Source of the DNA: a virus
Taxonomy: Duplodnaviria > Caudoviricetes
DNA: 59,786 nucleotides
IMG/VR virus record: IMGVR_UViG_3300027326_000002
Coordinates: 1 to 59,786 of that record
Strand: one strand, 5' to 3'
A model generated the notes under the pieces. It saw nothing but the letters and a program-made list of their open reading frames with translations, did no database searches and was not told where the DNA came from. Both the position numbers and the translations under genes were made by a program. Of this stretch, positions 3,467 through 56,937 are shown piece by piece. Each line of letters starts with the position of its first letter. The stretch's first letter is position 1.

Positions 3467-3777
3467 GACACGACCTCCGGAAGTTGCTCGGGCGCGCCTG
3501 CCTTCAGCGCCTGCCCACGGATCGGCTGCAGGTCACAGTCCGGGATGCCCCAGACGTCGACCCAGAGATTGCCGAAGAGGCTGTCGTCGTAGTGCACGCG
3601 AATGGACTTCTCGATGGCCCAGATCGGGCCGCGACCCTGATCACCGCGCAGCGCCACGCAACGCACCACCTGGCCCAGGCACTGCCTGCGCAGCGCGTCG
3701 GCCAGCGTGCGCGGCTTGCAATCGGGATAGGGTGGCGTATCGATCACGATGGCCATGTCATCTTGCCTGCACCTCAT
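3463..3777 (-). CDS. hypothetical protein inserted between the primase and helicase halves
   Basis: 104-aa ORF with 4-nt overlaps with both neighbours. Confidence 0.7.
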   Translation of the reverse strand: MRCRQDDMAIVIDTPPYPDCKPRTLADALRRQCLGQVVRCVALRGDQGRGPIWAIEKSIRVHYDDSLFGNLWVDVWGIPDCDLQPIRGQALKAGAPEQLPEVVS

Positions 3778-4364
3778 GATGCGAGATCCTCCGAATCGTC
3801 ACCCCACCGCAGCGGCGCCGACGCGCGCGAGCCCGGAAGGATGAATTGGTTGCCAAAGCCGTCAGGCTTGACGTCGTTTTGCTTGGGGAAAACCTCGACG
3901 CGCCCCGCGTCCACGCCCCCGGCGCCGTCCTTCAGGCCGCACGAGACCAGGACGCCCTTCAGGAGCTGGCGCACGCTGTAGGCGTCTTGCGGCTCGTCCC
4001 AGAGCAGGTACAGGTGCACCCCGCGCCCGCCGCCTGAGCGAAAGAGGATCGGCTCCAGGCCGTGCGCCATCTCCAGCGCGTCCGCAACGCGCTGCACCAC
4101 GGCCGACATCTCGGGCCACGAGACCTTGCCGTCGTGCGAGTCGAAGTCCAGCACGGCAACGCGGGTCGTCGACTCGCCGGCCTTGATCGGACAGACGCCG
4201 CGCGCGGGGCCGCCATTGAGGTGCCGCGCGAGCCGCTCGTCGGTCAGCGGCTGGTCGGCGCGCCAGGCCATGTGCCCCGCGTCGCTGCGCGTAGCGGTCA
4301 CGTCCGTGCGCACACGGGAGGTCAGCGGCGCCAGCGCCGCGGCGATGTGTGTGAGGTCAGGCAC
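3774..4364 (-). CDS. AEP-superfamily primase domain (N-terminal part of a split primase-helicase)
   Basis: GTG start after CAGGAGGG. Motifs VAVLDFDSH, RSGGGRGVHLY, VEVFPKQ, GNQFILP. Ends GDDSEDLAS*. Confidence 0.85.
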   Translation of the reverse strand: MPDLTHIAAALAPLTSRVRTDVTATRSDAGHMAWRADQPLTDERLARHLNGGPARGVCPIKAGESTTRVAVLDFDSHDGKVSWPEMSAVVQRVADALEMAHGLEPILFRSGGGRGVHLYLLWDEPQDAYSVRQLLKGVLVSCGLKDGAGGVDAGRVEVFPKQNDVKPDGFGNQFILPGSRASAPLRWGDDSEDLAS

Positions 4365-5514
4365 TGCGTCCCTCCTGCTGCGGCTCCGCCCCTGCACCTG
4401 CAGATGGGTGGCGCTCAAGCCACGAGTCGCGCATCCGTTGATACGTCTCGACGTTCGTGTAAACCCACCGGCCCGGGCCAGTGTCCAGTCGGCGATGCTT
4501 TGCAGGGGTGGCGAGCGGGTGAGACTTCAGCCACTCGTTGAGCGGGCCGAGCTTGTCGGGGTACAGCCCCGGCTGTGACAAACGATCGAGCCACTTCAGC
4601 GCGTCGACGACAGGTTCGGGCAGCGCCACCACCTCCGCCCCCATGACTCCCTGCCCGCCCTTGCGCGCCTGCTGGTCGGCCACCAGCGCCGCGAGCGATT
4701 CCTCGACGCTGGGCTGGCTTGCGAAGTCGTGCACGCTCGCCGATGCAGCCTCGCAATCGTCGATCAGGTTGTCGAGCAAACGGAAGCACGCTTCGTTGAG
4801 TTGCGCCGTGCCGCAGCCAGCCGGTCCAGCGCGATGGATCGCCCACGCGAGACGGCCTTCCTTCGACAGCGACATGGAGAGCATGTCTCCATCCTTCGTC
4901 TTCCAGTCGATCGCGATGCCGCCGTCAGCGTCGCGGCTCAGTTCGTCGTGCTGCTGCTCCCCGCTCGCCGATGCAGTCATCTCCGAGCCCGCACGGGGTG
5001 GGGTGGCGTAGAGAGGCTGTGTGTAGCGCAAAGCGATGTTGCGGTACCCACCACCTGATGCGATCCACATCCGCTTCCTCTCGGCACAGCACACCTCGCC
5101 GGTGTCTGGGCGAAGCCAACCCACCGGCTCTCCCGCCACCGCATCGACAGCCGGGATGGGAGCGGTAGGGGCTGCGGCTTCCATGTGACTGCTAACTGCT
5201 CCCGTCAGCCATCCGAGCAACTCGCCGATGCCTTGAGGAAGCGCGTTGCCGGTTTGGCTTGCCCAGGCTCGGGCCTCCTCGAATAGATCGAGATGTCGTG
5301 AGGGCCGCCCGTGTTCTTCAGGCGGCATGCAGCCTTTCTCGGAATTACAAGGATGGCACGACAAGCGCAGGTTGTCGCCCTCGTTGCTGCCACCCAGGTG
5401 CCGCGGCACGTAGTGGTCCACCGTCGCCTCGCTGCGCCGCAACATGCGATCGCAGTACCGGCAGCGCCGGTGATCACGATGGTAGATGAAGGACGTCAGC
5501 TCGCGAACGCTCAT
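4357..5514 (-). CDS. HNH (McrA-type) domain fused to a long phage hypothetical region
   Basis: CRYC...TVDHYVPRHLGG...NLRLSCHPCNSEKG, followed by an EPVGW...QPLY-type module. Confidence 0.75.
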   Translation of the reverse strand: MSVRELTSFIYHRDHRRCRYCDRMLRRSEATVDHYVPRHLGGSNEGDNLRLSCHPCNSEKGCMPPEEHGRPSRHLDLFEEARAWASQTGNALPQGIGELLGWLTGAVSSHMEAAAPTAPIPAVDAVAGEPVGWLRPDTGEVCCAERKRMWIASGGGYRNIALRYTQPLYATPPRAGSEMTASASGEQQHDELSRDADGGIAIDWKTKDGDMLSMSLSKEGRLAWAIHRAGPAGCGTAQLNEACFRLLDNLIDDCEAASASVHDFASQPSVEESLAALVADQQARKGGQGVMGAEVVALPEPVVDALKWLDRLSQPGLYPDKLGPLNEWLKSHPLATPAKHRRLDTGPGRWVYTNVETYQRMRDSWLERHPSAGAGAEPQQEGRSA

Positions 5515-5852
5515 GCGAACAGTTCCCCCTGCTCCGGGCACCAGCGGTTGCCCTTGGCGCCGTTGACGCGCCAGTGGATCACCTGCAGGTTCCACGGCAC
5601 CGTCAGGCCCGACACGCGCGGGTGCGTCACGGGCACCTTGTGGTCGAGCACGTGCAACTCGCCGGTGAAGATCGAGCGCGCCTTGGCCCAGGCTCGCAAC
5701 AGCTCCAGGTCGACGCGATCGACCCAGTCGGGGCACGAGACGCAGACCGTGGCGATGTAGGTCGCGCGGGCGTTGTTGTGGATCCAAGGCACGCGCTGGC
5801 CGGCCAGTAGCTTGGCACGTGCACCGCGACGGCAGAACCGAACGATGCTCAA
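5511..5852 (-). CDS. HNH endonuclease-like protein
   Basis: HVLDHKVPVTHPRVSGLTVPWNLQVIHWRVNGAKGN. Confidence 0.8.
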   Translation of the reverse strand: MSIVRFCRRGARAKLLAGQRVPWIHNNARATYIATVCVSCPDWVDRVDLELLRAWAKARSIFTGELHVLDHKVPVTHPRVSGLTVPWNLQVIHWRVNGAKGNRWCPEQGELFA

Positions 5853-8114: not shown

Positions 8115-8714
8115 ATGGCTCACGAAAGAAACATCGCAGCGTTGCTGCGCACGGACGCACGCACGGTGCACGTCTCGTTCATCAAGGACGTCGAGCCCGA
8201 GCTACCCGAGGACAACCAGTTCGACCGGCTGCTCGTGGCCGAGCAACGGCGGCGCGCAGAGCCGGAATACCACACGATCAGCGACGGTGCGAAGTATCGC
8301 AATCCCGCTTTCGCCGTCTCCCCGGCGCGCAAGACCTACACCTACGTCGCTGACCTGCCGCTCGAAGTCGACGACGTCGTCGTGGTCACGGTGCGCGGAC
8401 AGCTCACGCTGGCAGTCGTCCGCTCGGTCGACGACGAGGTCAAGATCGAACCGGGTTCGGCCGTCGGCTACCTGTGGGTCGTGGCCAAGGTGGACATGGC
8501 CAACTACCACGCCAACCTCGACCGCAATCGCGAGATCGAGCAGACCGTGGCCGAAGGCATGCGCGCCAACCTGCGCCGCTCGTTCGCCAACTCGTTCATG
8601 GCCGGCCTGGCGCCCGACGCCTCGGCCAAGCTGGGCTCACTGATCGGCGAGACCGTGGCCATCGGCGCGCCTGCCGAGCACGCGCCCAAGGCCGACGGCG
8701 ACATCGCCGGCTGA
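8115..8714 (+). CDS. hypothetical protein (SH3-like middle region), ends ADGDIAG*
   Basis: AAAGGA RBS. KTYTYVADLPLEVDDVVVVTV. Confidence 0.8.
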   Translation: MAHERNIAALLRTDARTVHVSFIKDVEPELPEDNQFDRLLVAEQRRRAEPEYHTISDGAKYRNPAFAVSPARKTYTYVADLPLEVDDVVVVTVRGQLTLAVVRSVDDEVKIEPGSAVGYLWVVAKVDMANYHANLDRNREIEQTVAEGMRANLRRSFANSFMAGLAPDASAKLGSLIGETVAIGAPAEHAPKADGDIAG

Positions 8715-8799: not shown

Positions 8800-9294
8800 G
8801 TGATCGAATTGAAGATCTACCTGACCAGCTTCACGGCGCTGGCTGCCGCGAGCGCGGCGCTGGCTACCGTCGAGGGCGCAACCCTCGCGGCCGCCGACGT
8901 CAAGCCCTCGGCCACCGTCACGCCCGAAAAGCAGCAGGCCGCGCGCGACAGCGTGGCCCAGGGCAGCGCGGCCGGTACCGCGAACACGGCCAAGCTGCCC
9001 AAGGAACCCAAGGCCGAGAAGGCGCCCAAGGAAACCCCGGCGCCGCCCCCGACGCCCACCGACGCCATGGTCGACGCCATCGTCAAGACCAGCACCGTGA
9101 CGCCGCCCAAGTACGAGGACTCGGGCCTGCCCAAGGCGATCACCGAGGCCAACACCAAGGACAGCCCGGCCACCAAGGCGGTGCTCGAGAAGTACAACGC
9201 GCGCAACGCCGAGGGCAAGCTCAAGGGCTCGGCTCTCAAGCCCGAGGACTTCGCCGCGGCACTGGCCGACCTCGAAGCGATCATCAACGGCTGA
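8800..9294 (+). CDS. Ala/Pro/Lys-rich hypothetical protein of the replication module
   Basis: CAGGAG RBS, GTG start, strong codon bias. Occupies the usual slot upstream of DUF2800. Confidence 0.8.
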   Translation: MIELKIYLTSFTALAAASAALATVEGATLAAADVKPSATVTPEKQQAARDSVAQGSAAGTANTAKLPKEPKAEKAPKETPAPPPTPTDAMVDAIVKTSTVTPPKYEDSGLPKAITEANTKDSPATKAVLEKYNARNAEGKLKGSALKPEDFAAALADLEAIING

Positions 9295-9333
9295 TCAACC
9301 GCGGGGCTCGCCCCGCTGCAGGAGGAACACGTC

Positions 9334-9798
9334 ATGTGGATCTGGCTCAAGCGACTCTTCGAGTCGCGCAAGGCACGCGAGGCGCGGCTGAATGTGGCTG
9401 CGGCTACGCTGCGCGAACGTGAACGCGAGTTCGAGCACGCGCTCGTCATGCGACTGGTTGAACTCCGGCGCACGACGTTCGTGCCGGCCCCGCCGCGGCA
9501 AGAGCAGTACCGGCGCAAGCAGCACGAGGCAGACAGCCGCGCGAAGCTGCGCCAGCCGGCGCCTGCTGCACGGTACTCGCGCCGCAAGGACGACGAGCCG
9601 CGCGACACGATGGCCGGCACGTACCTCGACCCGACCAACCCGCTGAACATCGCCGGCCTGTCGCCCTACACCTATGAGCCCCCGGCGCAGCCGAACAGCT
9701 TCACCCCGATCTATGAAGATCAACTGCGCATTGACACGTCGTCCAGCTGCGACATACCAGACCTGGGCCGCGCTGCTGGCCCACGTCAAGCAGAGTAA
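9334..9798 (+). CDS. hypothetical protein
   Basis: AGGAGG RBS, 154 aa. Confidence 0.75.
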   Translation: MWIWLKRLFESRKAREARLNVAAATLREREREFEHALVMRLVELRRTTFVPAPPRQEQYRRKQHEADSRAKLRQPAPAARYSRRKDDEPRDTMAGTYLDPTNPLNIAGLSPYTYEPPAQPNSFTPIYEDQLRIDTSSSCDIPDLGRAAGPRQAE

Positions 9799-9813
9799 AG
9801 GAAAAACGTCACC

Positions 9814-10476
9814 ATGACGACAGTCGACAAGATCACGCAGATGGCGTCAGCCGCTGCGCAAGGTTCCGCGGCTTTCACGGAACGAACCCGCGCTACGGCC
9901 ACGCCGGCCGCGCACGCGCGGCTATCTCCCAGCGGGTCCAAGCGCTGGTTCGCGTGCCCTGGCTCGCTGACCCTCGAAGCGCCGATCCCCAACAAGTCCA
10001 GCGAGTATAGCGACGACGGCACGGCGATGCACGACATCGCGGCGCGCGTGCTGACGTCTGACCCCACGAACGTGACCGCGGCCGACTTCATCGGCACGTG
10101 GGTCACCGTCAGTCGGCCCGACGAGGAGCCCACGCGCAAGGTGCAGATCGACGAGGACATGGCCGACCTCGTGCAGGCCTACGTCGACATGGTGCTGGCC
10201 AAGGCGTCGGGCCACGAGCTGCACGTTGAGCAGCGCGTGGAGTTCTCCCGATTCGTCGGCCTGGAAGACCAGTTCGGTACGTCCGACTTCATCATCATCG
10301 AGCGTGACGGCACGATGCGCATGCACACCCTGAACGTCGGTGATCTCAAGACCGGCCACAAGCCCGTGGACGTCGAGCGCAACAGCCAGGCGCTGACCTA
10401 CGCGCTGGGCGCGCTGGGCGACATGTACGAGCGCGCGATGGCAGCCGAGGAGGATGACGATGACCTCGCCGGATAA
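9814..10476 (+). CDS. DUF2800 / Cas4-like exonuclease, N-terminal half
   Basis: HARLSPSGSKRWFACPGS, GTAMH, VEQRVEFS, FGTSD, GDLKTG, NSQALTYALGAL. Ends EEDDDDLAG*. Confidence 0.9.
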   Translation: MTTVDKITQMASAAAQGSAAFTERTRATATPAAHARLSPSGSKRWFACPGSLTLEAPIPNKSSEYSDDGTAMHDIAARVLTSDPTNVTAADFIGTWVTVSRPDEEPTRKVQIDEDMADLVQAYVDMVLAKASGHELHVEQRVEFSRFVGLEDQFGTSDFIIIERDGTMRMHTLNVGDLKTGHKPVDVERNSQALTYALGALGDMYERAMAAEEDDDDLAG

Positions 10477-10693
10477 GCGCATCGCCGACCTCGAAGCGCA
10501 ACTGGCCGTCTCACGCCGCGCGATTGCTGTCTACCAAGCCATCGTCAGACGCGCAACCGACAACCTGACCATGCTGGGTCGCCAGGACATCGCCCGATCG
10601 CTCAACCACGACGCGATCAAGGAAGTCCAGGCCATCCCCGATGCTTTACTACTGAAAGGAACCGACGATGACGACGATGATCTCGCCGGCTGA
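10454..10693 (+). CDS. small helical protein inserted within the DUF2800 locus
   Basis: GAGGAGG SD inside the upstream gene (start at 10454 or 10460). Ends TDDDDDDLAG*. Confidence 0.8.
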   Translation: MTMTSPDKRIADLEAQLAVSRRAIAVYQAIVRRATDNLTMLGRQDIARSLNHDAIKEVQAIPDALLLKGTDDDDDDLAG

Positions 10694-11504
10694 ATACCGT
10701 CAGCGCGTGTTCGCGTGGGCCCGAGAGCAGGGCCTGCAGACGATCCGGCTGATCATTCACCAGCCCAAGGTGGCCGGCACGACCGAGTGGGAATGCACGC
10801 TGGACGACCTGGAGGACTTTGCCGTCACGCTCGAACGCAACGCGCGGCGCACGGTTGAGGCCGAGAAAGCCTACGGCACGATCCCGCTAGCGGTGTGGTC
10901 GGACAAGTTCCTCAACCCCACGCCCAACGACGACGAGTGCGCGTTCTGCCGGGCGATGCCCACGTGTCCCAGCGTGCAGGGCAACCTGCAAAAGTCCGCA
11001 GCCGCCGACTTCGATGTCGTGGCCGACGACGAGATGGCACCCGACCCGGCTCTCTTGCCGCCGGTCAAGCTGTCCACGGCCATGAAGATCGTGCCGCTCA
11101 TGGAAGCCTGGTGCAAGGCGGTGCGCGCAGAGGTTGAGCGCAACCTGCTCGCGGGCCGCGAGATCCCCGACTACGGGCTGGGCCTGGGCCGCCAGGGCAA
11201 CCGCAAGTGGAAGGACGAGGAGGCCGTCGAGACGATGCTGCGCAAGACGATGCGCCTGAAGATCGAGGACGTCTACTCGTTCAAGCTGCGCTCGCCCACG
11301 CAGATCGAAAAGCTCACCAAGGGCAAGGACGCCGTGGTCGGGCCGATGCAATGGGACAAGCTCTGTGCGCACGTGATGCGCGAAGAGGCCAAGCCCAGCG
11401 TGATGCTCAAGTCACAGATCAAGGTTCCCTGGGTGCCGCCGCTCCTGACGAACGACGGTTTTTCCGCAACTTCTGAGACGTCCGGCGACGACCTCGCCGG
11501 CTAG
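10668..11504 (+). CDS. DUF2800 / Cas4-like exonuclease, C-terminal half
   Basis: IRLIIHQPK, CAFCRAMPTC, GRQGNRKWKDE, KLRSPTQIEKL. Ends SGDDLAG*. Confidence 0.9.
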   Translation: MTTMISPAEYRQRVFAWAREQGLQTIRLIIHQPKVAGTTEWECTLDDLEDFAVTLERNARRTVEAEKAYGTIPLAVWSDKFLNPTPNDDECAFCRAMPTCPSVQGNLQKSAAADFDVVADDEMAPDPALLPPVKLSTAMKIVPLMEAWCKAVRAEVERNLLAGREIPDYGLGLGRQGNRKWKDEEAVETMLRKTMRLKIEDVYSFKLRSPTQIEKLTKGKDAVVGPMQWDKLCAHVMREEAKPSVMLKSQIKVPWVPPLLTNDGFSATSETSGDDLAG

Positions 11505-11513
11505 GAGATTCCC

Positions 11514-11828
11514 ATGAGTCCTGCAGACGACGACGAAGACTTCTTCAAGCAGCCTAAGATCGCTGGCTATCGCCAGCTCGGGAAGCGTGAGGCCGACCTC
11601 ATGAACCTGACGAAGGAACTCGGCGCCAAGTTCGAAACGCTGATCAACGCGTTGCGTGATTACCATGCGGAGCAGCGTGCGAATGCGAAGATCGCGCCGC
11701 CCGAGTACGACGACGAGACCCCGCGCCTGGACAACGCCGAACCCGAGCGTTGGCTCGCGATGGGCCGCACCGACATCCAGGTCGGCGTCATGAAGATCGT
11801 GCGCTCGATCGCGCAGCCGGCCTCTTGA
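11514..11828 (+). CDS. acb2: anti-CBASS cyclic-oligonucleotide sponge Acb2
   Basis: KIAGYRQL...DLMNLTKELGAKFE...NAEPERWLAMGRTDIQVGVMKIVRSIAQP follows the Acb2 pattern KIKGYRDL...MNRVKELG...[28 protein letters not shown] (recalled, not searched). Confidence 0.9.
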   Translation: MSPADDDEDFFKQPKIAGYRQLGKREADLMNLTKELGAKFETLINALRDYHAEQRANAKIAPPEYDDETPRLDNAEPERWLAMGRTDIQVGVMKIVRSIAQPAS

Positions 11829-11897
11829 TCTTTCCCGCGCTATCTGGGCGCCTCGCGCACGCCCTGACCTTCTAACCTACCAACCGGAAACCCTCAA

Positions 11898-12524
11898 ATG
11901 GAAATCATGCTCAAGGATGTGCGCCTGTCGTTCCCTGATCTCGGAGAGCCGCAGCGCTATCAAGACAACCCGTCCAACGCCCCGCGCTGGGGTGCCACGC
12001 TGCTCGTGCCGGAAGACTCGGCGCAGCGCAAGCTGGTCGACAAGGCCGTGCGCGACGTGCTGACCGAGAAGTTCGCTTCGAAGTGCAAGGCCACGCCCAA
12101 AAAGACCGCCCAGCAGGTGCTCGACGACTTGATCGACGAGATCCTGGCCGACAAGAAGGCCTCGGCCTGGGTCGACGGCAACAAGAAGCCCTACGACGGC
12201 TACGACGGCAACATGGCGCTGACGGCCTACCGCTACGCCGACAAGGGTCGTCCGATCGTGATGGACAACGACATGTCGCCGATCTATGCGGCCGACAACC
12301 AGCTCATGCCGGGCAAGGGCGGCCGCATCTACGGCGGCTGCTACGTCAACGCCAAGGTCGAAATCTGGGCGCAGGACAACAAGAACGGCAAGGGCGTGCG
12401 CGCCACGCTGATGGCCATCCAGCGCAACCGCGGCGGTGATGCCTTCGGCGGCGGCGCGGCGCCGTCGGCCACGGGCTTCGAAGAAGTCGGCGAAGGCGCC
12501 GACGCCGACGACCTGTCCGAATAA
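11898..12524 (+). CDS. DUF2815 / gp2.5-like ssDNA-binding protein
   Basis: VRLSFP, IYGGCYVNAKVEIWAQDNKNGKGVRATL...GDAFGGG, acidic tail ADADDLSE*. Confidence 0.92.
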   Translation: MEIMLKDVRLSFPDLGEPQRYQDNPSNAPRWGATLLVPEDSAQRKLVDKAVRDVLTEKFASKCKATPKKTAQQVLDDLIDEILADKKASAWVDGNKKPYDGYDGNMALTAYRYADKGRPIVMDNDMSPIYAADNQLMPGKGGRIYGGCYVNAKVEIWAQDNKNGKGVRATLMAIQRNRGGDAFGGGAAPSATGFEEVGEGADADDLSE

Positions 12525-12596
12525 ACGGTCTCTTTTCGAGCGGCTCGTGAGTGGGCCGCTCCGTAAAGAGTCTTTACCAACCGGAGGAACCGAACC

Positions 12597-13028
12597 ATGG
12601 CGAAGATTTACGTTGCGTCGAGCTGGCGCAACCAATGGCAGCCGGGCGTCGTTGACGCGCTGCGCCAGCACGGACACGAGGTCTACGACTTCCGCAATCC
12701 GCCGAATCGCACCGGTTTTGGCTGGCGGCAAGTCGCGCTGGACATGGCCGGCCGCGAGGCCGTGTCAGCCGAGGAAGCGATCAAGGCGCTCGCGCACCCG
12801 ATCGCGCAGGCAGGCTTCAAGTCCGACCACGACGCGATGGAGTGGGCCGACGCGTTCGTGATGGTTCTGCCTTGCGGCAAGTCGGCGCACCTGGAACTCG
12901 GATGGGCTTGCGGCAAGGGCAAGCGCACCATCATCCTGTGGGTGCTCCACGACGCACCCGAGCTCATGTACCTGGAGGCCGACGACATCGTCACGTCGAT
13001 CCCCGAGCTGATCGAGACGTTATCGTGA
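12597..13028 (+). CDS. nucleoside 2-deoxyribosyltransferase / N-glycosidase-like protein
   Basis: KIYVASSWRN, D..AMEWADAFV, GKSAHLELGWA.G.GK. Confidence 0.8.
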   Translation: MAKIYVASSWRNQWQPGVVDALRQHGHEVYDFRNPPNRTGFGWRQVALDMAGREAVSAEEAIKALAHPIAQAGFKSDHDAMEWADAFVMVLPCGKSAHLELGWACGKGKRTIILWVLHDAPELMYLEADDIVTSIPELIETLS

Positions 13029-29178: not shown

Positions 29179-31715
<2,537 letters not shown>

Positions 31716-40093: not shown

Positions 40094-41026
40094 TCAGCCG
40101 CGTTGGACGACGGCCGTGCCGACGTACTGGCCGTCGATCACGTTGAAGCCGTAGACCATCAGGCCGCGGATGATGTAGCCGAAGTCGTTCGGGTTGGTGA
40201 TCATCTCGTTCTCGACGATCTGCGCAGCGAACGTCAGGCCGGCCGAATGGCCGAACATGCAGTAGGCCGCCTGGCCAGGGCTCACCTGCGTGAGCAGGTT
40301 GCGCGACTGGTACAGCGTGAAGCGGTCCACTTCACCGACCTTGCCGTTGCGCAGGATCGAGACGCCGTCGCCCGACAGCGACGCGATGCGCAGGTCGGAC
40401 TTCTTGAGCGCGCCCATGAACCACGGCGGCGCCACGAACCAGCGGCCTTCGTCAGGCACGTTCTGCTCGTCGAGCACCGTGCCGCAGTCGACCAGGAAAT
40501 TCGTGACGTTGGTCGGCGTGATGACGACCGGCGTGGTGGAATCGCCCAGGTTGATCGAGCCCGAATCCGCGCCCGCGTGCGTGCCCTGGTTGGCCGTGGC
40601 GACCTCAGCCGGGATCGTCGTCAGGACGTCGGCGTCGGCCGCGATGCGCAGCTGGATCGAGCCGTCGTTGGCGAAGATGTCGGCCATGTCGACGTCGGCC
40701 TGGCGCGCGTCCACGGTCGTCAGCGCCACGGCGAACGACTTGGCGCGGTTGATCGTCAGGTTGGTGGAGTTCGACGTGGGGTACTGCTGGCCCAGGCCGG
40801 CACCCACGACGTAATCCGAGACGATCACGTCGGGGATCGTGCGGATGACGACCTGCGCGCCGTAACCCGCGATCTCGCCCTCGTAGTCGGTCGAAGCGAT
40901 CTCGCCGAACACGGTGGACTTGTAGAACTTCTCGACCAACTTGCCCGAGTACAGAACCGGGTCGTAGTTGATGGTGCCCGAGGGGCCGTAGTCGGGCAGG
41001 CCCGACGCGCGTGCAACGCCAGTCAT
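40094..41026 (-). CDS. major capsid protein (HK97 fold)
   Basis: P.LYSGKL.EKFY, TDYEGEI..YG..V.IRT.P, LDEQNVPDEGRW, RNGKVGEVDRFTLY.S, RGLMVYG. Confidence 0.92.
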   Translation of the reverse strand: MTGVARASGLPDYGPSGTINYDPVLYSGKLVEKFYKSTVFGEIASTDYEGEIAGYGAQVVIRTIPDVIVSDYVVGAGLGQQYPTSNSTNLTINRAKSFAVALTTVDARQADVDMADIFANDGSIQLRIAADADVLTTIPAEVATANQGTHAGADSGSINLGDSTTPVVITPTNVTNFLVDCGTVLDEQNVPDEGRWFVAPPWFMGALKKSDLRIASLSGDGVSILRNGKVGEVDRFTLYQSRNLLTQVSPGQAAYCMFGHSAGLTFAAQIVENEMITNPNDFGYIIRGLMVYGFNVIDGQYVGTAVVQRG

Positions 41027-50300: not shown

Positions 50301-51567
50301 CGTTGCGCACGACAGCGGCGTAGACGGTCGGCGCCGTGGTCGTCAGGTACAGCACGTCGTGCTGCGGCAGCAGGCCGATGGGGCTCGCGAAACCGGTCGA
50401 CTCCATCGCGTCGCCGCTGTAGTCGAAGCTGCCTTGCTGCAGCGGCGTGAAAGTCGCCGGCAGGGACGTGACCAGCGAACTCGCGGGATCGACCGTAGCC
50501 ATGTAGGTCGGCACGACCTCGGTGTTTTGCAAGTACGCCTTGTCGTGCGTGATCGTGACGGCCGGATCGGCGCCCAGCCAGTACGACAGCGCGGTGCCCG
50601 AGACCAGCGGCGTGCGGCAACGGCACGGCAAGTCGACCGATAGCGTCGAGCGCGTGGTGCCGCCCAGCGTGAAGATGTAATTCGCGGCCTTGTTGACCGG
50701 GCCGGCGACGTGGATGTAGCCGTTCTCGATCCAAGGCAGCACCTCGACCGCACCGCTGGCATACAGGCGCACCTCGAGCCAGCCGACCAGGTGCGCGTCG
50801 GAACCGACGGGCTTCCTGTAGATCCACGACGACATTTGCGGGCCGCTGATGTGCGTGACGAACGGCGTGTCCCAGGCTGTCGTGGCCCACGAGACGGTGC
50901 CGAACGTGCCACAGGCGATGCTGGCGGTGATGCCCGTGGCCTTCAAGTCCGTGGTCGTCAGCGCAGTGCCCGTGGCCGACGTGCCCAGCGACAACGTGAC
51001 CGTCTTGGGCGTGTTGGCCACCAGCGCCACGGCGCCGGACAAGACCGCGAACTTCAGCGAGCCATCGGGCCACGCATTCATCGGCGTGACCTGCAGGTTC
51101 GTGACCTTGTCGGCCACGACGCCGGAGCCGGCCGGGATGTCGCCCTGCGCGAACGCAAAGCCTGCTGTGAACGGCGCCGTGGCCGTCGCGGTGCTGGTCA
51201 GCGTCAGCTGCTTGGCGCCACTGGTCACGGGAGCCGTCAGGCCTGGGGCCGGCGGCGGTGCCGGCGTCGGCGTGGGGCTGGGCGTCGGAGACGGCGTCGG
51301 GCTGGGCGTGGGCGACGGCGGGCTGGGCGTGGGCGACGGCGGCCCCGGCGTCGGGCTGCCCGTGACGATCAGCATCAGCGCGTTGATGGTGCCTTGCAGA
51401 TCCAGCGGCTCACCGGTGAGCGGATCACACAGCATGATCTGCTCGCGTTCCTCGCCATGAATGACCTTGGGCGAGTTCTGCGGCGTGGCCAGGCTCGTCA
51501 GCAGCGACACCATCTTGACGGGGTTGCCGTTGAGATAGCGCGTCGATTGCTTGGGGAAGTTGCTCAT
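47374..51567 (-). CDS. 1397-aa multidomain carbohydrate-active/binding protein (YetA/PL26-like N-region, beta-propeller, LamG-like C-terminus)
   Basis: PFTAGFAFAQGDIP...WPDGSLKFA; GGHSDYSGNE propeller-like region; WHMVAVV LamG-like region; two P/T/S linkers. Confidence 0.65.
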   Translation of the reverse strand: MSNFPKQSTRYLNGNPVKMVSLLTSLATPQNSPKVIHGEEREQIMLCDPLTGEPLDLQGTINALMLIVTGSPTPGPPSPTPSPPSPTPSPTPSPTPSPTPTPAPPPAPGLTAPVTSGAKQLTLTSTATATAPFTAGFAFAQGDIPAGSGVVADKVTNLQVTPMNAWPDGSLKFAVLSGAVALVANTPKTVTLSLGTSATGTALTTTDLKATGITASIACGTFGTVSWATTAWDTPFVTHISGPQMSSWIYRKPVGSDAHLVGWLEVRLYASGAVEVLPWIENGYIHVAGPVNKAANYIFTLGGTTRSTLSVDLPCRCRTPLVSGTALSYWLGADPAVTITHDKAYLQNTEVVPTYMATVDPASSLVTSLPATFTPLQQGSFDYSGDAMESTGFASPIGLLPQHDVLYLTTTAPTVYAAVVRNGYSAGRYPIHYRDEATNRPLKLADHPNLSIDSSTTGDFPAPSTGTVGPDWDQAHHPSVGFLAYLLTGRFYFMEEVQFAATMNYIGLADSIRGYGVGTIEPLSGAVQTRQMAWVLRTLMTAVMATPDSDAAGLQAQFVNSWVTVISQNHARYVEQSNNPLGFIANNLDYTTQFTGAQAAAATGYMAAAWMHDFIVAVFGWAAAAKMPIGTTSQTKLLDFFVNYLAKSIVGRLGATNTGTDYLFTECAPYVLAVSSNHIPDWLGGTGPWFSNWNEAYQVTKNAASYYAPSAQFKEDPTTINEISMPPSGGYVVNMLPALAYCVRHNAAGASAGLARLQGAIGWSVTQAGFNANWNIVDSINQISPVWGVTSSTPLLPTWVLAASQYQWVTIPGSVQAGSAYDIDGGISTNSRLAYSSFTVRGTEIWLTATGGHSDYSGNEVGSIDLGVNSPAWTLRCARSATISADVTYEPDGKPAAAHRYWGGFWSKETGRIIQPYTRFTWPNATVSNNATNGFNPVTNTWDAAGTWTGVPLCDCMDEDGNIWFIGNNFYDIGKFVPSTNTVTTLHTHGSTITASPTAFDSKRKTLYSLCNGDGQGNGSGITSFTVDRTTGVPTPITFNPSAAYTQFSSRVPVYMGMDYEPTLDCFFAFCPYSNADGYQGGDTTVYKITPNSTTVWDMSILAVTGLPPSPHVGAMTRFKYVAALGGFVCMPSGTGSMSFLRTTAGAVVTSPPPSPTPPPSPTPPPPTPTPPPPPTPTPPPPPTPGLVFLGKLTSAGLTESVSGTAITAHGTAAYTSSSPGPAVALNGASTDYLSFSGLACPAYPYTIGCFFRQKSTANIGSGVQVMGLNIDNGAKFVSILLDGSYGIDAVVRNYSTTAALASEPDTGFAYDAWHMVAVVINSATSRQVYAQGVGLSAANTTAVDTAGTTATVILGEHPVDGTLPVTGYEKYAFVITRALGLTELNAIAVDPTILTP

Positions 51568-53693
51568 GGCGTAGCCCCTGGTGAGTTCCTGCCCTTCATG
51601 CCCTCGGCCACGGCCGTCTGCACGATGCCGGCCAGCGCCTTGGTCTGCTGGGCCGAGTTCTCGCGCGCCGTGATGGCCTGCTCTTTTTGCTGCTCGAAGG
51701 CCTGCAACTGCTGCTGGTTGGCTTGCATGGCCTGCGCATCGGCCTGCATCTTGGCATCGATCTCATCGTTGGTGGGCACGACATCGTCGGCCGGCAGATC
51801 CATCGCCGCGGCGGTGGCGCGCAGCAGCGCCGCGCGGTGCTTGGGCCCGATGATGGGCGCGTCGATCGGATTGGCCGTCAGCGTCAGGAACTGCAGGCGA
51901 CGCTGCTGCGACGACTCGCGGATCAGGATCGCCGCGGCGCCGCGCGGCACCACGATGCAGTCACCCTTGATCGACTCGTCGGGGTTGTAGAGCATCTCGT
52001 GGATGAACGTGTCGTTGACCGTGGGTGCGATCACGTTCATGTCGATGTTGGAGATCGCGCGGCGCAAGCCCTTGGCCGCGTTGTTCATCAGCATGGACAG
52101 CCCGCCCAGCGTGTCGGCCGAGCCGCCCGAGCTCTCATTGCCGTAGGTGTAGCGCGGGATGCCCGTGGCGTCGTCGGCCTCGAGCGAGAATTTCTCGTAG
52201 ACGGCCATGAGCGGCCCGGAGCGGTCGTCAGGCTGGAAAAATCCGATGCCGGGGTTGACGCCCTGGGTCGGGTCGGACTTGAGCTGCCAGAGCTTCCACG
52301 GGAACATCTCCATGGACTGATCGCCGTCGGCGAACCGGTCGGCGTGCACCCAGACCTGCGGGCCCGAGGCGATCGACAGGTTGTCGGCCAGACGGCACAG
52401 CGTGGAGTTGCACATTTGCTGGGGCGTGCGCATCAGGTCGGGCACCGAACGGCCCCAGAACGCGCCCGGGATCTCGTCGTAGCAGGCCTTGCGGTAGGGC
52501 CGCGTGCCCATCAGGTTCGGGTTGAGCGCCGCGTACAGCACGTAGCTGCCGCAAATCACGACGTTGCACTCGTAGTCCTTGGTCTCTTCCAGGCCCGTGA
52601 CGCCCCAGCTCATGAGCTTCCAGCCGGGCACGGAGCCCCAGAACGCGAGCGCGTCGATCACGCCGGGCGGCGCCAGCCACATGAACGTGGTTTCCTGCTC
52701 GAGCCGTTGGCGCTCGGACTCCGTCCACAGCCACGCCTCGAGATGGCCGTTGGAGTAGTCGCGCAGCGCGCCGTCGATCTGGTCGTCCTTCCACCCGGGC
52801 ATGCCCTTGAAGTCGTAGAGCTCGTCGCGGCGGAACCGCATGCGCTCGATGAAGTCGCCCTTTTGCGGGCTGGTGGCCGCGGCCGCGGGGTAGGCGTCGA
52901 ACGGCGAGACGCGATGCCAGGTCTGGATCGGCACGTCCTTGACCACGGGCTTCCAGCCGTCTTCCCAATGCAGCTCCTTGCGGCGCGAGTAGATGGGCCC
53001 TTTGAGGATCGCCGCCGGGAACGTGACGAAGTCCTCGACGAAGCCGTCCATCGCCTGGGCGTAGCCGCCATCCTCGAGCCGGTCGCCGATGACCTTTTCC
53101 ATGCGGGCCGCGCGTTCCTTGGCCATCTTGTCGAAGGTCTTTTCGGCGTCCTCGCGCAGCTTGTCGCCGATCATCATGACCATGTCGCGGAACTCGCCCG
53201 GATCCATCACAGCGCCGGCCTGGCCTGCCTGCGCCATGGCTTGCTTGGCCTGCGCGAGTGCCTTGTTGACCACCGCGTTCTTGAGCGGGAACGGCAGGTC
53301 GGGGCGCGGGCTGGGATCGACTCCCCACGGCTGCTCGCCCACCGGCAGCACGATCTCGCGGATCCACGCCGAGGCCGCGCGGCACTTGGTCTCGGTCAGC
53401 GGCGCGTAGATGATGTTCATGCCGCCGCCCGAGGCCGCCTGCATCATCGCGACCTCGTCGGGCGAGTACACGCCGCGGCGCGCGCGCAGGTCAGCCAGCA
53501 ACTTGCGGTCGATGATCCACTTGGAGAGCTTGTTGCGGCTCCATGAGAGCCGCACGTGGCCAGCCAGCGCCGACTCGAGCAGGTCGCCCGAGAGTTCGCG
53601 CGCGGTGTCGGTCACGGACGCTGCCGCATCGCGCTGCAAGACCTCGGACAGGCCAAGGGAGCGAACGAGCGGGTTGGAAGTCGCAGCGGCCAT
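51564..53693 (-). CDS. portal protein
   Basis: 709 aa after terL. VSPFDAYP, FWGRSVP.LM...Q, DN..IASGPQ, TGIPRY.YG, GLSMLM. Confidence 0.92.
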   Translation of the reverse strand: MAAATSNPLVRSLGLSEVLQRDAAASVTDTARELSGDLLESALAGHVRLSWSRNKLSKWIIDRKLLADLRARRGVYSPDEVAMMQAASGGGMNIIYAPLTETKCRAASAWIREIVLPVGEQPWGVDPSPRPDLPFPLKNAVVNKALAQAKQAMAQAGQAGAVMDPGEFRDMVMMIGDKLREDAEKTFDKMAKERAARMEKVIGDRLEDGGYAQAMDGFVEDFVTFPAAILKGPIYSRRKELHWEDGWKPVVKDVPIQTWHRVSPFDAYPAAAATSPQKGDFIERMRFRRDELYDFKGMPGWKDDQIDGALRDYSNGHLEAWLWTESERQRLEQETTFMWLAPPGVIDALAFWGSVPGWKLMSWGVTGLEETKDYECNVVICGSYVLYAALNPNLMGTRPYRKACYDEIPGAFWGRSVPDLMRTPQQMCNSTLCRLADNLSIASGPQVWVHADRFADGDQSMEMFPWKLWQLKSDPTQGVNPGIGFFQPDDRSGPLMAVYEKFSLEADDATGIPRYTYGNESSGGSADTLGGLSMLMNNAAKGLRRAISNIDMNVIAPTVNDTFIHEMLYNPDESIKGDCIVVPRGAAAILIRESSQQRRLQFLTLTANPIDAPIIGPKHRAALLRATAAAMDLPADDVVPTNDEIDAKMQADAQAMQANQQQLQAFEQQKEQAITARENSAQQTKALAGIVQTAVAEGMKGRNSPGATP

Positions 53694-53752
53694 CGGGCTA
53701 CCAGGTCAATGGAGGTGGCCGGATCGCGCGGGCGCGGGTTCCGCGGGTGGTC

Positions 53753-53828
53753 TGGTGGATCGCGTGGGGCTCGAACCCACCGAAGCTGGCTTGCAGGGCC
53801 TGCCTGCCTGCGCCCCTGCGCGCAACCC
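53753..53828 (-). tRNA. atypical tRNA-Ala(TGC)-like gene
   Basis: 76 nt GGGTTGC...GCGATCC-A-CCA with G3:U70 and A73. Perfect T-arm GTGGG-TTCGAGC-CCCAC. Anticodon loop CCTGCAA. Non-canonical D-arm. Confidence 0.65.
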
Positions 53829-53830
53829 AA

Positions 53831-53868
53831 TGCCGCGCAGTGTAGCAGCGGCTGGGCTACCTCGTCCA
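53831..53868 (-). promoter_or_regulatory. promoter upstream of the tRNA-like gene and portal
   Basis: TGGACG-18 nt (ending TGC)-TACACT-GCGCGGCA, matching the TATACT-GCGCAGCA element at 42357-42370. Confidence 0.6.
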
Positions 53869-55521: not shown

Positions 55522-55537
55522 TGCTGCACAGCGCGTT

Positions 55538-55762
55538 TCAGGCCGGGGTGGCGTCGAAGTAGTACGCCTTCCCGAGCTCGAACTGCTCGAGCGCGGCCGG
55601 GTTGTCGATCGTCATATCGAACTGGCCGGAGGGCGTCGCCTTCTGGAAGCGCTGATCCTCGGGAATCGACTGGTCGTAGACCGCCTGGAACGTCAGCTTC
55701 TTGGCGCCCCAGCTCGCGAACGAGGTGATCGAGGTCAGGGTGAACTTGGCGCGAACGGTCAT
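55538..55762 (-). CDS. conserved phage hypothetical protein
   Basis: MTVRAKF...F.KATPSG...I.NP.A...F..GK.YY.D. Confidence 0.75.
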   Translation of the reverse strand: MTVRAKFTLTSITSFASWGAKKLTFQAVYDQSIPEDQRFQKATPSGQFDMTIDNPAALEQFELGKAYYFDATPA

Positions 55763-55862
55763 AGGAAGGCTCCACGGCACGGGGTGAACTCGTCGGGCTC
55801 CTCGCCCTTTGCGAGATGGCGTGCCAACCACTCGCGAGTGATGTTCAGCTGCACGACGCGGA

Positions 55863-56162
55863 TCAGCCGCCGCGACGCTTGAAGCGACCCGGGCTGGTAG
55901 TCTGGGCGATGGCGTTGGGCGCGCCCGAGAGCAGGCCGTAGCCGAGCGCGGCGTCGGTGCGCGAGGGCAGCCCTTCGGCGGCGGGCACGGCCGCCAGGCA
56001 CTCGGGGTCGGTCTGGTCGACCACGCGCTGGGCGCGGCCGCGGCCGGTCATGAGCGAGGCGGTGCGCGTCTGGCCCACGCCCGTGGCCTGGGCCCGGAAC
56101 TGCTGGGGGTCGACCGCGGTGGCGCGGTGCGTGGTGGAGTCATCCGGCGAGATCTTCATCAT
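55863..56162 (-). CDS. hypothetical protein whose start overlaps the terS DLAG tail
   Basis: MMKISPDD... with GAGGA upstream. Confidence 0.6.
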   Translation of the reverse strand: MMKISPDDSTTHRATAVDPQQFRAQATGVGQTRTASLMTGRGRAQRVVDQTDPECLAAVPAAEGLPSRTDAALGYGLLSGAPNAIAQTTSPGRFKRRGG

Positions 56163-56937
56163 CGTCCTCACTGGCCGCGGGGGTGGATCGGGGTGCTCGA
56201 GTCGGCGTGGGCAGCGCCACGGCGCGCTGGCGCGAGTGTAGCGCGATGCTGTCGGCTTCGGGGACATCCAGGCCCAGGGGCGCGGCCGTGACGTCGCCGG
56301 CCAGGGATGGGTCATCGTCAACGCCGTACTCCAGGCGCTGGCCGCCGGCGGCCGTGGCCGGGTGCGGCAGCACGACGGCATCCTCGGCCTGCTGGTTGAG
56401 CTCCGCGCGGTTGACTGCGGCCTGGCGCACGCGCGCGGTCTTGAGCCGGTCGGCCAGCGCGTTGGCCAGCGCGTTCACGCCGTCCGAATCCTCGCCCACG
56501 ATCTTGAAGTGGCGCGCGAGCAGGCTCAGCGCCGCCATCTTGTCGTGCGTGCGGATCTTCTTGACCGTGAAGACCTCCTTGTCCTTGCCGTGGCCTTCGC
56601 TGCGCACCTCCACCTCCACGCGAGACACCGCGGCCGCCACATCGTCGCCCAGCTCGTGCATCTTGCGCAGCGTGCCGTACTCGTCGTCGAAGAGCTCCCG
56701 CGGATCGTGGAACGCGATGCGGGCGATCTCAATGAGCGTGCGCTCGGCGCTGATGCCGGCCTTGGCAAAGCGCTGCTTGACGATCTCGTTGACACGGGCC
56801 GAGATGTCCGGATGGCTCGTCAGGCTGTAGGCGTAGGCGGCGGCGTACCCGCACTCGACGGCCGCCTTTCGCGAATTGCCACTCAGCGCGTAGGTTTGCG
56901 CGAATGCTTCGTGCGAGGGATTTTCAAGTTGTGGCAT
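56140..56937 (-). CDS. terS: terminase small subunit, ends EDDDEDLAG*
   Basis: F..TY...GN.RKAA...GY, ISAERTLIEIARIAF.D.RELFD, DKMAAL.LL.RH. Confidence 0.9.
   Translation of the reverse strand: MPQLENPSHEAFAQTYALSGNSRKAAVECGYAAAYAYSLTSHPDISARVNEIVKQRFAKAGISAERTLIEIARIAFHDPRELFDDEYGTLRKMHELGDDVAAAVSRVEVEVRSEGHGKDKEVFTVKKIRTHDKMAALSLLARHFKIVGEDSDGVNALANALADRLKTARVRQAAVNRAELNQQAEDAVVLPHPATAAGGQRLEYGVDDDPSLAGDVTAAPLGLDVPEADSIALHSRQRAVALPTPTRAPRSTPAASEDDDEDLAG

Follow-up and report, generated by a model that had tools for sequence, protein, structure and literature searches.

Common acidic C-termini in the window

Why would a phage close several unrelated proteins with the same few acidic residues? 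The question arose from a 59,786-nucleotide stretch of Caudoviricetes DNA (IMG/VR record IMGVR_UViG_3300027326_000002), the whole of which is called the window here. A sequence-only reading had quoted nine C-termini from it, and all nine were confirmed at their stops, including the weak EAIING at 9294 on the plus strand. The main tail-bearing genes are as follows.

8115–8714, plus strand: 199-aa protein of the replication module, tail KADGDIAG; phrog_13551, function unknown
9814–10476, plus strand: N-terminal half of a DUF2800 exonuclease, 220 aa; PF10926 profile positions 1–162 of 368, E 8e-36
10460–10693, plus strand: mini-ORF within the DUF2800 split site, 77 aa, MTSP...GTDDDDDDLAG
10668–11504, plus strand: C-terminal half of the DUF2800 exonuclease, 278 aa; PF10926 profile positions 170–364 of 368
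11898–12524, plus strand: gp2.5/Enc34-type SSB and annealing protein, 208 aa; PF10991, E 5e-25; phrog_112
39331–39738, minus strand: 135 aa, tail SGDNLSG; gene flanked by those of the major head protein and the SU10-type adaptor
56140–56937, minus strand: terminase small subunit (TerS), 265 aa; PF03592, E 4e-19

Terminal enrichment was assessed on 78 genes from our own codon-based gene call. The pattern [DEN]-[LI]-[AS]-[GSED]-stop closed 8 of these 78 genes compared to 0.09 expected (binomial P 7e-14), the expectation being based on 21 occurrences in 18187 internal windows. Among ORFs of at least 40 codons outside the gene call, none of 691 ended in the pattern. The strict form D[LI]A[GD] was terminal in 5 of the 78 genes, against 0.009 expected. 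EAIING was not a member of the tail set in the window. All three stop codons are in use in the tagged genes, and both GAT and GAC, and both GGA and GGC, were seen, as had been described.

Conservation of the tails in relatives

The tails were followed into G001, which keeps the form ...DDLAG, and into G002, a more distant relative. The TerS tail, SEDDDEDLAG before the stop, reads DDDEDLAG in G001 and DDEDLAD in G002. TerS is 64–65% identical to its G001 counterpart overall, yet the tails are identical, and in alignment A5 the linker varies in length while the tip after it is invariant. The 135-aa protein ends in ADNLSG in G001 and SSDLAD in G002; it gave no family match and no fold-search match at E <= 0.001, and its AF2 model (pLDDT 68.6) has a disordered tail. 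For the 199-aa protein, an 85% identical homologue in L067 keeps the tail TDGDIAG, and the protein atlas pointed only weakly to a PriA 3'-DNA-binding-like domain. Five proteins of G002 end in D[LI]AD, namely both DUF2800 halves, the SSB, TerS and the homologue of the 39331 protein.

The SSB (alignment A3) carries an acidic tail in 23 of 23 genomes. Its AF2 model has a mean pLDDT of 86, and residues 186–208 fall below 50, meaning that the tail is disordered. The window SSB ends in ...GADADDLSE, whose last two residues differ from those of LAG. The tips of G001 form two classes, LAG and xLD, the latter on the SSB, the C-terminal DUF2800 half and the 8800 homologue.

The DUF2800 exonuclease is genuinely split, with a tail on each half. 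EEDDDDLAG and its stop, coded at 10447–10476, close the N-terminal half, whose orthologues end in DDDDLAG (G001) and SDDDLAD (G002); the C-terminal half ends in SGDDLAG with a TAG stop, and its orthologues in GDDSLD (G001) and EDDDLAD (G002). Where DUF2800 is split, the N-terminal half bears a tail of its own, and all splits fall at one common domain boundary. The tails of the two halves match in the window, G002 and L096 and mismatch in G001 and L072.

The mini-ORF starts in the +1 frame within the tail of the N-terminal half, with an alternative ATG at 10454. It matched no Pfam or PHROG family. Four homologues were found among 5.8e9 proteins; they are 56–94% identical, and 4/4 end in GTDDDDD(D)LAG. 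G001 has the mini-ORF with the tail DDDDDLAG, two copies stand in tandem in L066 and L067, and G002 has none.

Tail codons vary where the peptide does not: in G002, Ala is encoded by GCC, GCT and GCG and Asp by both GAT and GAC, and the DLV-type tails of wider relatives use, within a single genome, CTC, CTG, TTG and TTA for Leu and GTC, GTT, GTG and GTA for Val. These varied codons indicate selection on the peptide, not on the DNA. Together with orthologue conservation, they bear out the earlier proposal that the tail peptide and its terminal position are selected.

Primase pieces

Two further copies had been placed in the primase.

3774–4364, minus strand: N-terminal piece of an AEP primase-polymerase, 196 aa, tail GDDSEDLAS; PF22548, E 5.5e-15
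2933–2959, minus strand: internal ESDDDDLTG in the linker between PriCT-2 and D5_N of the C-terminal primase piece

The EDLAS tail is present at 3774, and its conservation in relatives failed: in G001 the primase is a single 807-aa chain, with ..IDSLAG.. inside it at the corresponding position, and the G002 primase piece ends in EEDPWW. The primase tail is a weaker member, specific to the window. The internal ESDDDDLTG exists as described; neither the linker nor the motif is retained in the G001 and G002 orthologues, and this copy probably lies outside the tail system.

Tips change together across phages

A wider comparison covered 23 genomes, with gene calls from our own simple caller. Other proteins shared the terminal dipeptide of their own SSB in 46 cases compared to 5.65 expected, and the terminal tripeptide in 21 cases compared to 0.48 expected; 6 of the 23 genomes had no protein sharing the SSB dipeptide. 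In phages with the duf2800-gp2.5-polA module, the cultured Bordetella phage BPP-1 among them, a common tip closes the SSB, the DUF2800 exonuclease, TerS and small ORFs, and this tip co-varies between genomes as DLV, EFA, SLI, GEAA, LAG or LAD. In the RefSeq annotation of BPP-1, 5 of 49 CDS end in [DG]LV (0.036 expected): SSB bbp40, exonuclease bbp38, TerS bbp26, bbp15 and bbp45.

The last two residues of DUF2800 and SSB were equal in 25 of 70 unique pairs drawn from metagenome and IMG/VR loci (shuffle mean 7.3) and in 24 of 66 unique pairs drawn from prophages of bacterial genomes (shuffle mean 8.0); these shuffles, which ignore relatedness, reached the observed value in 0/10000 trials in each set. 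Matched prophage tips include GEAA/GEAA, SLT/ALT, ESLI/ESLI and EDFA/EDFA, and many pairs in both sets are mismatched. Because most DLV genomes belong to one BPP-1-like group, independent tip changes are far fewer than genomes. Homology identified TerS in 14 genomes; the final two residues matched those of DUF2800 in 11 of them and those of the SSB in 9. The matching holds across two TerS families: the window lineage has PF03592 and the other genomes the Sf6-like phrog_4044.

The tails as proposed docking peptides

The reading we favour, at a probability of roughly 0.62, is that the tails are acidic C-terminal docking peptides of the gp2.5/SSB type, placed on many proteins and aimed at one receptor. 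The sequence ...DD-L-A-G-COOH would be a short linear motif selected at the extreme C-terminus, this lineage's form of the gp2.5/Enc34-type SSB tail. Its bearers would be the SSB (in a looser form), both DUF2800 halves, the mini-ORF, TerS, the 199-aa protein and the 135-aa head-module protein. Each tail would act as a tethered docking peptide, with the acidic run, the hydrophobic or small tip and the free carboxylate fitting one shared receptor pocket. The tagged proteins may then gather at one site or compete for it, as T7 gp2.5 and gp4 share the polymerase gp5.

Alternative explanations of the tails

The acidic tail may instead act in cis, as a DNA mimic that covers the DNA-binding surface of its own protein and inhibits it, with no common receptor and the likeness of the tips as a by-product. 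Such a role is possible since DNA binding is common to every tagged protein of known function (SSB, exonuclease, TerS, primase, an HTH protein and a BPP-1 methylase ending in ADLI), and passages of PMC10359462 and PMC5686142 report competition between the gp2.5 tail and ssDNA for the OB fold. However, unrelated DNA-binding surfaces need neither identical last two or three residues nor joint change between genomes, and the 77-aa mini-ORFs and other tagged ORFs of 60–95 aa have no recognised DNA-binding domain. We regard this explanation as unlikely, although it is the strongest of the alternatives.

The DNA at the tails suggests another reading, in which a DNA or RNA junction element of about 15–25 bases (GAYGAYCTCGCCGGNTRA) serves translational coupling or is a recombination site that shuffles cassettes, the peptide being its by-product. 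The 15-base motif GAYCTCGCCGGNTRR has four exact copies in the window, one at the stop of each of the four strongest tails; allowing up to two mismatches, 14 matches were found compared to a shuffle mean of 5.06, and 0/100 shuffles reached 14. The four strongest tail copies share the identical DNA CTC GCC GG. At three of these four (10476, 10693 and 56140), the DNA that codes for the tail also contains the start of the next ORF, which lies in the +1 frame and has its own Shine-Dalgarno sequence. These overlaps measure 23–26 bases in the ORF list; our own start call gives 17 bases for the first junction. At TerS, the overlapping ORF is the following.

55863–56162, minus strand: 99-aa ORF, MMKISPDD..., starting in the +1 frame within the TerS tail-coding DNA

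Its overlapping start, GACGATGAA, is retained at more distant TerS/TerL loci. The split site holds zero, one or two mini-ORF cassettes with the repeat flanking each, and nucleotide similarity between the window and G001 starts exactly at the motif. Because the next ORFs start inside tail DNA, the identity of CTC GCC GG is partly a dual-coding effect, and recent copying and dual coding add to the likeness of the four copies. Against a junction element, three base changes between the window and G001 (GGA TAA G to GGC TGA C) kept the upstream Gly-stop and turned Asp-Lys of the downstream frame into Ala-Asp. The tails of G002 and the DLV-type genomes vary synonymously, and most lack an overlapping start, as do the window tails at 11504, 8714, 39331 and 12524. 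Among 37 IMG/VR stretches with the motif, a homologous gene-end context was found only in the record of G001. This explanation is quite improbable.

C-terminal degrons exist, and the strictly terminal tag could be a degron or stabiliser, recognised by a protease of the host or the phage, that sets the lifetimes of the tagged proteins. However, the last residue of the tip is Gly, Asp or Glu within the window lineage but Val, Ala or Ile in other phages, and the tip differs among phages of fairly close hosts, unlike a conserved protease specificity. The abundant SSB, needed stoichiometrically, is itself tailed in 23/23 genomes. These points count against an ssrA-like degron, and we give this role slightly less weight still than the junction element. 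The Gly-terminated ligation handle of the sequence-only reading is not supported either: the terminal Gly is replaced by Asp in G002, and wider relatives have Val, Ala or Ile there.

It is very improbable that the +1 overlaps are programmed frameshift sites fusing DUF2800-N, the mini-ORF and DUF2800-C, and TerS with the 99-aa ORF, the tails being unshifted products: each of the three overlapping junctions does step by +1 (frames 1, 2, 0) and the arrangement is conserved in G001 and G002, but each downstream ORF begins at an ATG with a normally spaced Shine-Dalgarno sequence of its own, both the stop (TAA, TGA) and the codon preceding it (GGA, GGC, GAT) vary, the C-terminal half in L096 begins past the stop of the N-terminal half without overlap, tails also occur without any downstream +1 ORF, and an Rfam scan of the window matched no family.

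Comparison with known systems

The docking explanation has a precedent in T7. The sequence-only reading knew of no description of such a system; the principle is in fact known from T7, where gp2.5 ends in EDGDF and gp4 in NDTDF by the sequence record, both closing in ..DF, and our literature search found no paper on a tail common to SSB, exonuclease and TerS. Passages of PMC5686142 and PMC10359462 describe the gp2.5 tail contacting polymerase and helicase, and a title in their reference lists has one polymerase loop binding both T7 proteins. In the same passages, the acidic tail of Enc34 ORF6 is disordered and occupies the groove of a neighbouring molecule in the crystal.

As in T7, unrelated proteins of one phage carry the same acidic tail and tip, and the two SSBs are of one structural class (gp2.5/Enc34 type; PF10991, phrog_112). 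Unlike in T7, five to eight proteins per genome are tagged here, including the exonuclease, TerS, the head-module protein and mini-ORFs, whereas T7 TerS gp18 ends in DIYTLQ. Here the tip reads Leu-Ala-Gly, Leu-Ala-Asp or Asp-Leu-Val; in T7 it is a terminal Phe. Bacterial SSB-Ct similarly has a disordered linker and then an acidic tip with a hydrophobic end for protein docking (passages of PMC5686142 and PMC10359462). There, one tail meets many receptors; here, many proteins are tailed, which implies few receptors and a reversed topology.

The C-terminal clamp-binding peptides of T4 converge on gp45, and encapsulin cargo-loading peptides are likewise C-terminal. In both, as proposed here, unrelated proteins present a common short C-terminal peptide to one receptor, but the sequences are unrelated and the receptor here is a putative one. 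The adjacent DUF2800, gp2.5-type SSB and Pol A genes of the window (9814–15376) form the duf2800-gp2.5-polA module of PMC8093625; shared C-terminal tails, the DUF2800 split and tagged mini-ORFs do not appear in the passages of that paper describing the module.

Candidate receptors

Binding, a single receptor and its identity are what we infer from the tails. That the tails form an SSB-like addressing peptide stood insofar as the SSB bears the same kind of tail and the tips co-vary; for the hub, several candidates remain, namely Pol A, SNF2, the SSB core and TerL. The three that are separate from the SSB are untagged.

13025–15376, plus strand: family A DNA polymerase, 783 aa; PF00476 weak (E 0.0018, below cut-off), alignment A4
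16438–17811, plus strand: SNF2-type helicase, 457 aa; PF00176
53857–55521, minus strand: terminase large subunit (TerL), 554 aa; from annotation of tblastn matches

The Pol A family is present in 20 of 23 genomes and, in analogy to T7 gp5, might serve as the receptor. The SNF2-type helicase family, with a conserved basic end ...AMKRKK, occurs in 23/23 genomes, and the TerL family in 19/23. As a rough division, the OB groove of the SSB and Pol A are equally possible, each on about a third of the weight, and TerL, SNF2 or a host protein jointly follow slightly behind.

The change of tips in step across phages suggests one docking site joining replication, recombination and packaging. Through such a site, exonuclease/annealase recombination and replication would be tied to terminase loading.

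Gene content of the window

The window comprises 59786 bases, a whole virus record with a G+C content of 66%, and contains 78 genes according to our own codon-model gene call. On the replication arm, the AEP primase piece is followed by a PriCT-2/D5 piece, and the arm further contains two DUF2800 ORFs, a gp2.5/Enc34-type SSB, an Acb2/Tad1-hairpin protein, Pol A, an SNF2 helicase, and a VRR-NUC-like endonuclease. TerS (PF03592), TerL, the major head protein, and an SU10-type adaptor lie on the other arm. No close cultured relative was found by megablast of positions 9000-13000, and a tblastn search for cultured relatives with TerS returned only 4 weak matches.

Features of the window referred to in the text
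1403-3466, minus strand: PriCT-2/D5 primase piece
3463-3777, minus strand: 104-aa ORF between the primase pieces, no family found
3774-4364, minus strand: AEP primase piece (primase-N)
Stop at 8714, plus strand: 199-aa protein
8800-9294, plus strand: 164-aa protein
9814-10476, plus strand: N-terminal half of DUF2800
10460-10693, plus strand: 77-aa mini-ORF between the DUF2800 halves
10668-11504, plus strand: C-terminal half of DUF2800
11514-11828, plus strand: 104-aa protein with an Acb2/Tad1 hairpin domain (PF24729, E 1e-11)
Stop at 12524, plus strand: SSB
13025-15376, plus strand: Pol A family protein
16438-17811, plus strand: SNF2 helicase family protein
Stop at 39331, minus strand: head-module protein
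53753-53828, minus strand: lone tRNA-Ala (anticodon TGC), between the gene or genes at 51564-53693 and TerL
56140-56937, minus strand: TerS

The primase is fragmented over 1403-4364, while it is a single 807-aa protein in G001, the closer IMG/VR relative; G002, the more distant one, has two primase pieces set apart by several genes. The Acb2/Tad1-hairpin protein, with the N-terminus MSPADDDE directly after the DUF2800-C tail, may be an anti-defence nucleotide sponge. The 39331 protein was folded with a pLDDT of 68.6, and a Foldseek search of this model against viral models gave 0 matches at E <= 0.001. The protein atlas offered weak leads only, SAP/HeH/Rho_N-like for 39331 and PriA 3'-DNA-binding-like for the protein at 8115.

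A short acidic motif at the ends of unrelated proteins

The sequence-only reading had claimed that several unrelated proteins end in a common acidic peptide of the DDLAG type, and every C-terminus that it quoted was found at its stop. The pattern [DEN][LI][AS][GSED]-stop was terminal in 8 of the 78 genes compared to 0.09 expected (21 internal occurrences in 18187 peptide windows). The stricter D[LI]A[GD]-stop ended 5 of the 78 genes compared to 0.009 expected, with only 2 internal occurrences in the same 18187. The terminal enrichment also held against a background of non-gene ORFs, none of which (0/691) ended in the broader pattern. Terminal rather than internal placement of the motif was likewise found in G001 and G002. 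Neither the primase-N tail (EDLAS) nor the internal ESDDDDLTG is conserved in relatives.

The tip of the window SSB is looser (DDLSE, not DDLAG). In the fold of the full SSB, residues 186-208 had pLDDT below 50, as in a disordered tail; docking of this tail in cis was not predicted, and the fold is uninformative on a receptor. In TerS, the tip is invariant and the linker before it varies in length. Ahead of this linker, at residues ~204-211, TerS has another conserved acidic motif, the internal Y-G-V-DDDPS, and the linker of the G001 TerS is ~45 residues longer than that of the window and proline-rich.

G001 has two tip classes. The 164-aa window protein ends EAIING, and its G001 homologue (40426-40956, minus strand) ends GDDTALD, which resembles the tips of the G001 SSB (ADDLD) and DUF2800-C (DDSLD). 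The membership of the tagged set may therefore differ between close relatives.

Tips co-vary across related phages

Loci around DUF2800 relatives were taken from metagenomes and IMG/VR. Most of them contain an unsplit DUF2800 adjoining a gp2.5-type SSB, and the pair frequently has matching ends (EDLV/DDLV, CEFV/EDFV, DDFA/EDFA, ESLI/ESLI, EGLV/EGLV). The last two residues were the same in 25 of 70 unique tail pairs (shuffle mean 7.3; 0 of 10000 shuffles reached 25) and in 24 of 66 pairs from prophages of bacterial genomes, taken as an independent set (shuffle mean 8.0; 0 of 10000), with shuffles that ignore relatedness and with many DUF2800/SSB pairs mismatching. GEAA/GEAA and SLT/ALT are among the additional matches from the prophage set.

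A set of 23 genomes was assembled from the window, G001, G002, and 20 whole IMG/VR records; the latter were picked from 42 loci for long contigs (~30 kb or more) and had DUF2800/SSB tails that were already known. Under our own gene calls, and with the DLV genomes belonging mostly to one BPP-1-like group, the SSB's own last dipeptide ended 46 further proteins compared to 5.65 expected, and its last tripeptide 21 compared to 0.48. No protein shared the last dipeptide of its own SSB in 6 of the 23 genomes.

Tagged families in the 23 genomes
SSB: acidic tail in 23/23 genomes
DUF2800: 17/23 genomes by the criterion used for family tagging
TerS
phrog_3007/phrog_947: annotated as RusA-like resolvase or polymerase processivity factor, with a Pfam beta-clamp match below cut-off
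HTH protein
Several 60-95-aa ORFs without known function

Among the 14 genomes in which TerS was recognised by homology, its last two residues agreed with DUF2800 in 11 and with the SSB in 9; a 194-aa protein of one further record (G007), which ends DVSDLV and has no family match, was left out of this count. The agreement spans two different TerS families.

The addressing tag resembling an SSB tail, as put forward by the sequence-only reading, is the best-supported interpretation, and the observation extends well beyond the window. The tails are predicted to be tethered docking peptides of the gp2.5/SSB kind, since they are strictly terminal, consist of an acidic run and a short tip, follow a disordered or variable linker, and are present on the SSB itself, and since proteins of one genome that are otherwise unrelated change their tips together. 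One shared pocket would be the simplest cause of such co-variation. If each tail acted purely in cis, as an autoinhibitory element of its own protein, the shared and co-varying tips would be left unexplained.

A C-terminal degron fits poorly. The extreme C-terminus of an ssrA-like degron is non-polar and is conserved from host to host. Here the last residue is Gly, Glu, or Ser in the window and Asp in G002; Gly, Asp, and Glu ends differ between phages, and the SSB is tagged too. The degron option of the earlier reading was therefore unsupported, as was its option of a Gly-terminated handle.

Selection on the peptide rather than the DNA

The DNA word GAYCTCGCCGGNTRR is exactly common to four tails in the window. 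A frame-independent DNA repeat or regulatory site would be conserved in nucleotide sequence whatever the codon position and would also have copies away from gene ends. This candidate was rejected because each of the 4 exact copies stands in frame at a stop and the relatives vary synonymously; the variation outside the window lineage contradicts such an element. Three bases distinguish G001 from the window at the first junction, and the Gly-stop of the upstream protein is kept while the downstream residues are changed. Five G002 proteins (both DUF2800 halves, SSB, TerS, and the 39331 homologue) end D-[LI]-A-D, their Ala and Asp codons vary, and a downstream start overlaps only two of the five tails. 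The TerS proteins of the window and G001 have identical tails despite 64% protein identity and linkers that differ by ~45 residues. All four mini-ORF homologues in the database (4/4, 56-94% identical) keep GTDDDDD(D)LAG, and tail codons differ freely within single genomes of the 23-genome set.

A scan of IMG/VR for the DNA motif returned 37 stretches, of which only that from the G001 record was homologous. Most of the remaining stretches match by chance in a different frame; four of the remainder (L013, L016, L026, and L030) end ORFs with high third-position GC. The evidence points to the peptide rather than the DNA as the selected feature.

The split DUF2800 gene and its mini-ORFs

DUF2800 is a truly split gene in the window. 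Against the 368 positions of the profile for DUF2800 (PF10926), a PD-(D/E)XK-like exonuclease family, the N-terminal ORF covers 1-162 and the C-terminal ORF 170-364, giving a full-length match jointly, with the 77-aa mini-ORF between them. G001 (58.6 kb; proteins mostly about 50-98% identical to those of the window) has the same layout; in G002 (60.3 kb; about 35-83% identical) the split is present and the mini-ORF is absent. Two fetched loci, L066 and L067, which are 96-98% identical to the window at DUF2800-C, contain a tandem pair of mini-ORFs (72 and 75 aa), both of which start MTSP and end DDDLAG. All splits fall at a single domain boundary, at residues ~155-164 of the unsplit BPP-1 protein bbp38, and this includes L072 and L096, two distant loci from metagenomes. 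No Rfam match (0) was obtained in the window, so no known intron or other known RNA element was detected in the split genes. With a tail on each half, the split gene looks like a natural experiment in which a tail is needed on each separate polypeptide.

The split site (window 9814-11504, plus strand; L067 3921-5837; fetched locus L063 391-1879) holds 0 (G002), 1 (window, G001), or 2 (L066, L067) tagged mini-ORF copies, and a direct repeat of ~15-25 bases flanks each copy; the site looks like a small cassette array. This repeat is present at three or four junctions within the window lineage and may well have helped the cassettes to duplicate.

Three stops, at 10476, 10693, and 56140, are overlapped by a following ORF that is read in the +1 frame and begins within the acidic run, its start codon coming from the G-ATG-A of the Asp codons and a Shine-Dalgarno sequence lying upstream. 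The downstream proteins consequently begin MTSP.., MTTMISP.., and MMKISP... A programmed +1 frameshift site would lack a separate start for the downstream frame and would keep its shift codon and context conserved. A frameshift fusion of the ORFs is contradicted by the downstream ORFs having their own Shine-Dalgarno and ATG, by the variation of both the last sense codon and the stop codon, and by L096, where the DUF2800 halves are split without overlap.

The nucleotide similarity between the window and G001 starts exactly at the motif. At window position 10449, DUF2800-N shows 72% protein identity to G001 without a blastn match and the mini-ORF 87%; at 56140-56170, TerS shows 64% and the next ORF 91%. 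This sharp change in divergence at the tail motifs suggests mosaic breakpoints at those junctions.

Comparison with named phages

In the RefSeq annotation of Bordetella phage BPP-1, [DG]LV ends 5 of 49 CDS compared to 0.036 expected, namely the SSB bbp40, the exonuclease bbp38, the TerS bbp26, bbp15, and bbp45. The VRR-NUC-like endonuclease of BPP-1-like genomes ends ..EGVDEVLA and the Bpm methylase ..GVADLI, and BPP-1 bbp41 and Bbp44 end ..DDFEAV and ..DDFEVVA (38568-38831, 29758-30513, 36225-36413, and 38828-39046 in the BPP-1 locus). These may be further or second-class acidic-hydrophobic ends. In Shigella phage EP23, which has the same module, a shared tag was not found, and the SSB ends RKRRRR.

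According to PMC5686142 and PMC10359462, the T7 gp2.5 tail contacts polymerase and helicase, and the tail of gp2.5 and of Enc34 ORF6 lies in the OB groove of its own or a neighbouring molecule. T7 differs from the present phages in that only one pair is known, gp2.5 (..GDF) and gp4 (..TDF), and its TerS gp18 lacks the same tip. The duf2800-gp2.5-polA module was described in PMC8093625, in the available part of which no mention of shared tails was found; our literature search found no paper on a tail common to SSB, exonuclease, and TerS. The principle is known from the T7 pair.

Candidate receptors and a possible mechanism

Natural candidates for the receptor are the families that lack the tag and occur in almost all of the 23 genomes, namely SNF2 (in 23), the VRR-NUC-like endonuclease (21), Pol A (20), and TerL (19); the SSB core is a further candidate. 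The SNF2 family has a conserved basic end (..AMKRKK, ..AMKRRRT), and the Pol A family ends ..YRY[RH]K[DE]D in most genomes. A complex prediction with Pol A, the SSB core (residues 1-176), and the last 40 residues of TerS scored 0.00 in both runs, which were performed without controls, and this score counts neither for nor against binding.

A fuller model, to which we assign a probability of roughly 0.3, combines a docking hub, mini-ORF regulators, and insulation by the tip: the C-terminal 'zip code' would be private to the phage and would co-evolve with its receptor. One pocket on the SSB core, Pol A, or TerL would gather all proteins with the lineage tip, the cargo being the SSB, both exonuclease halves, a primase piece, the processivity-factor-like protein, TerS, and the head-module protein. 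Terminase loading would in this way be tied physically to recombination-dependent replication. By competing for the pocket, the tagged mini-ORFs (0, 1, or 2 in the DUF2800 split site) would regulate it, and divergence of the tips (LAG, LAD, DLV, EFA, SLI, GEAA) would insulate co-infecting phages.

Significance

If the tails share one receptor, the sequence rule 'ends like its own SSB' would pick functional partners among small phage ORFs of unknown function, and orthogonal tag-receptor pairs would become available for engineering. How terminase reaches replicating or recombining DNA would also become directly testable. Replication, recombination, and packaging would then be organised via a single peptide-pocket contact in a group that is both large and widespread, the phages and prophages with the duf2800-gp2.5-polA module, which include the model phage BPP-1 and prophages of Burkholderiales, Enterobacterales, and Acinetobacter.
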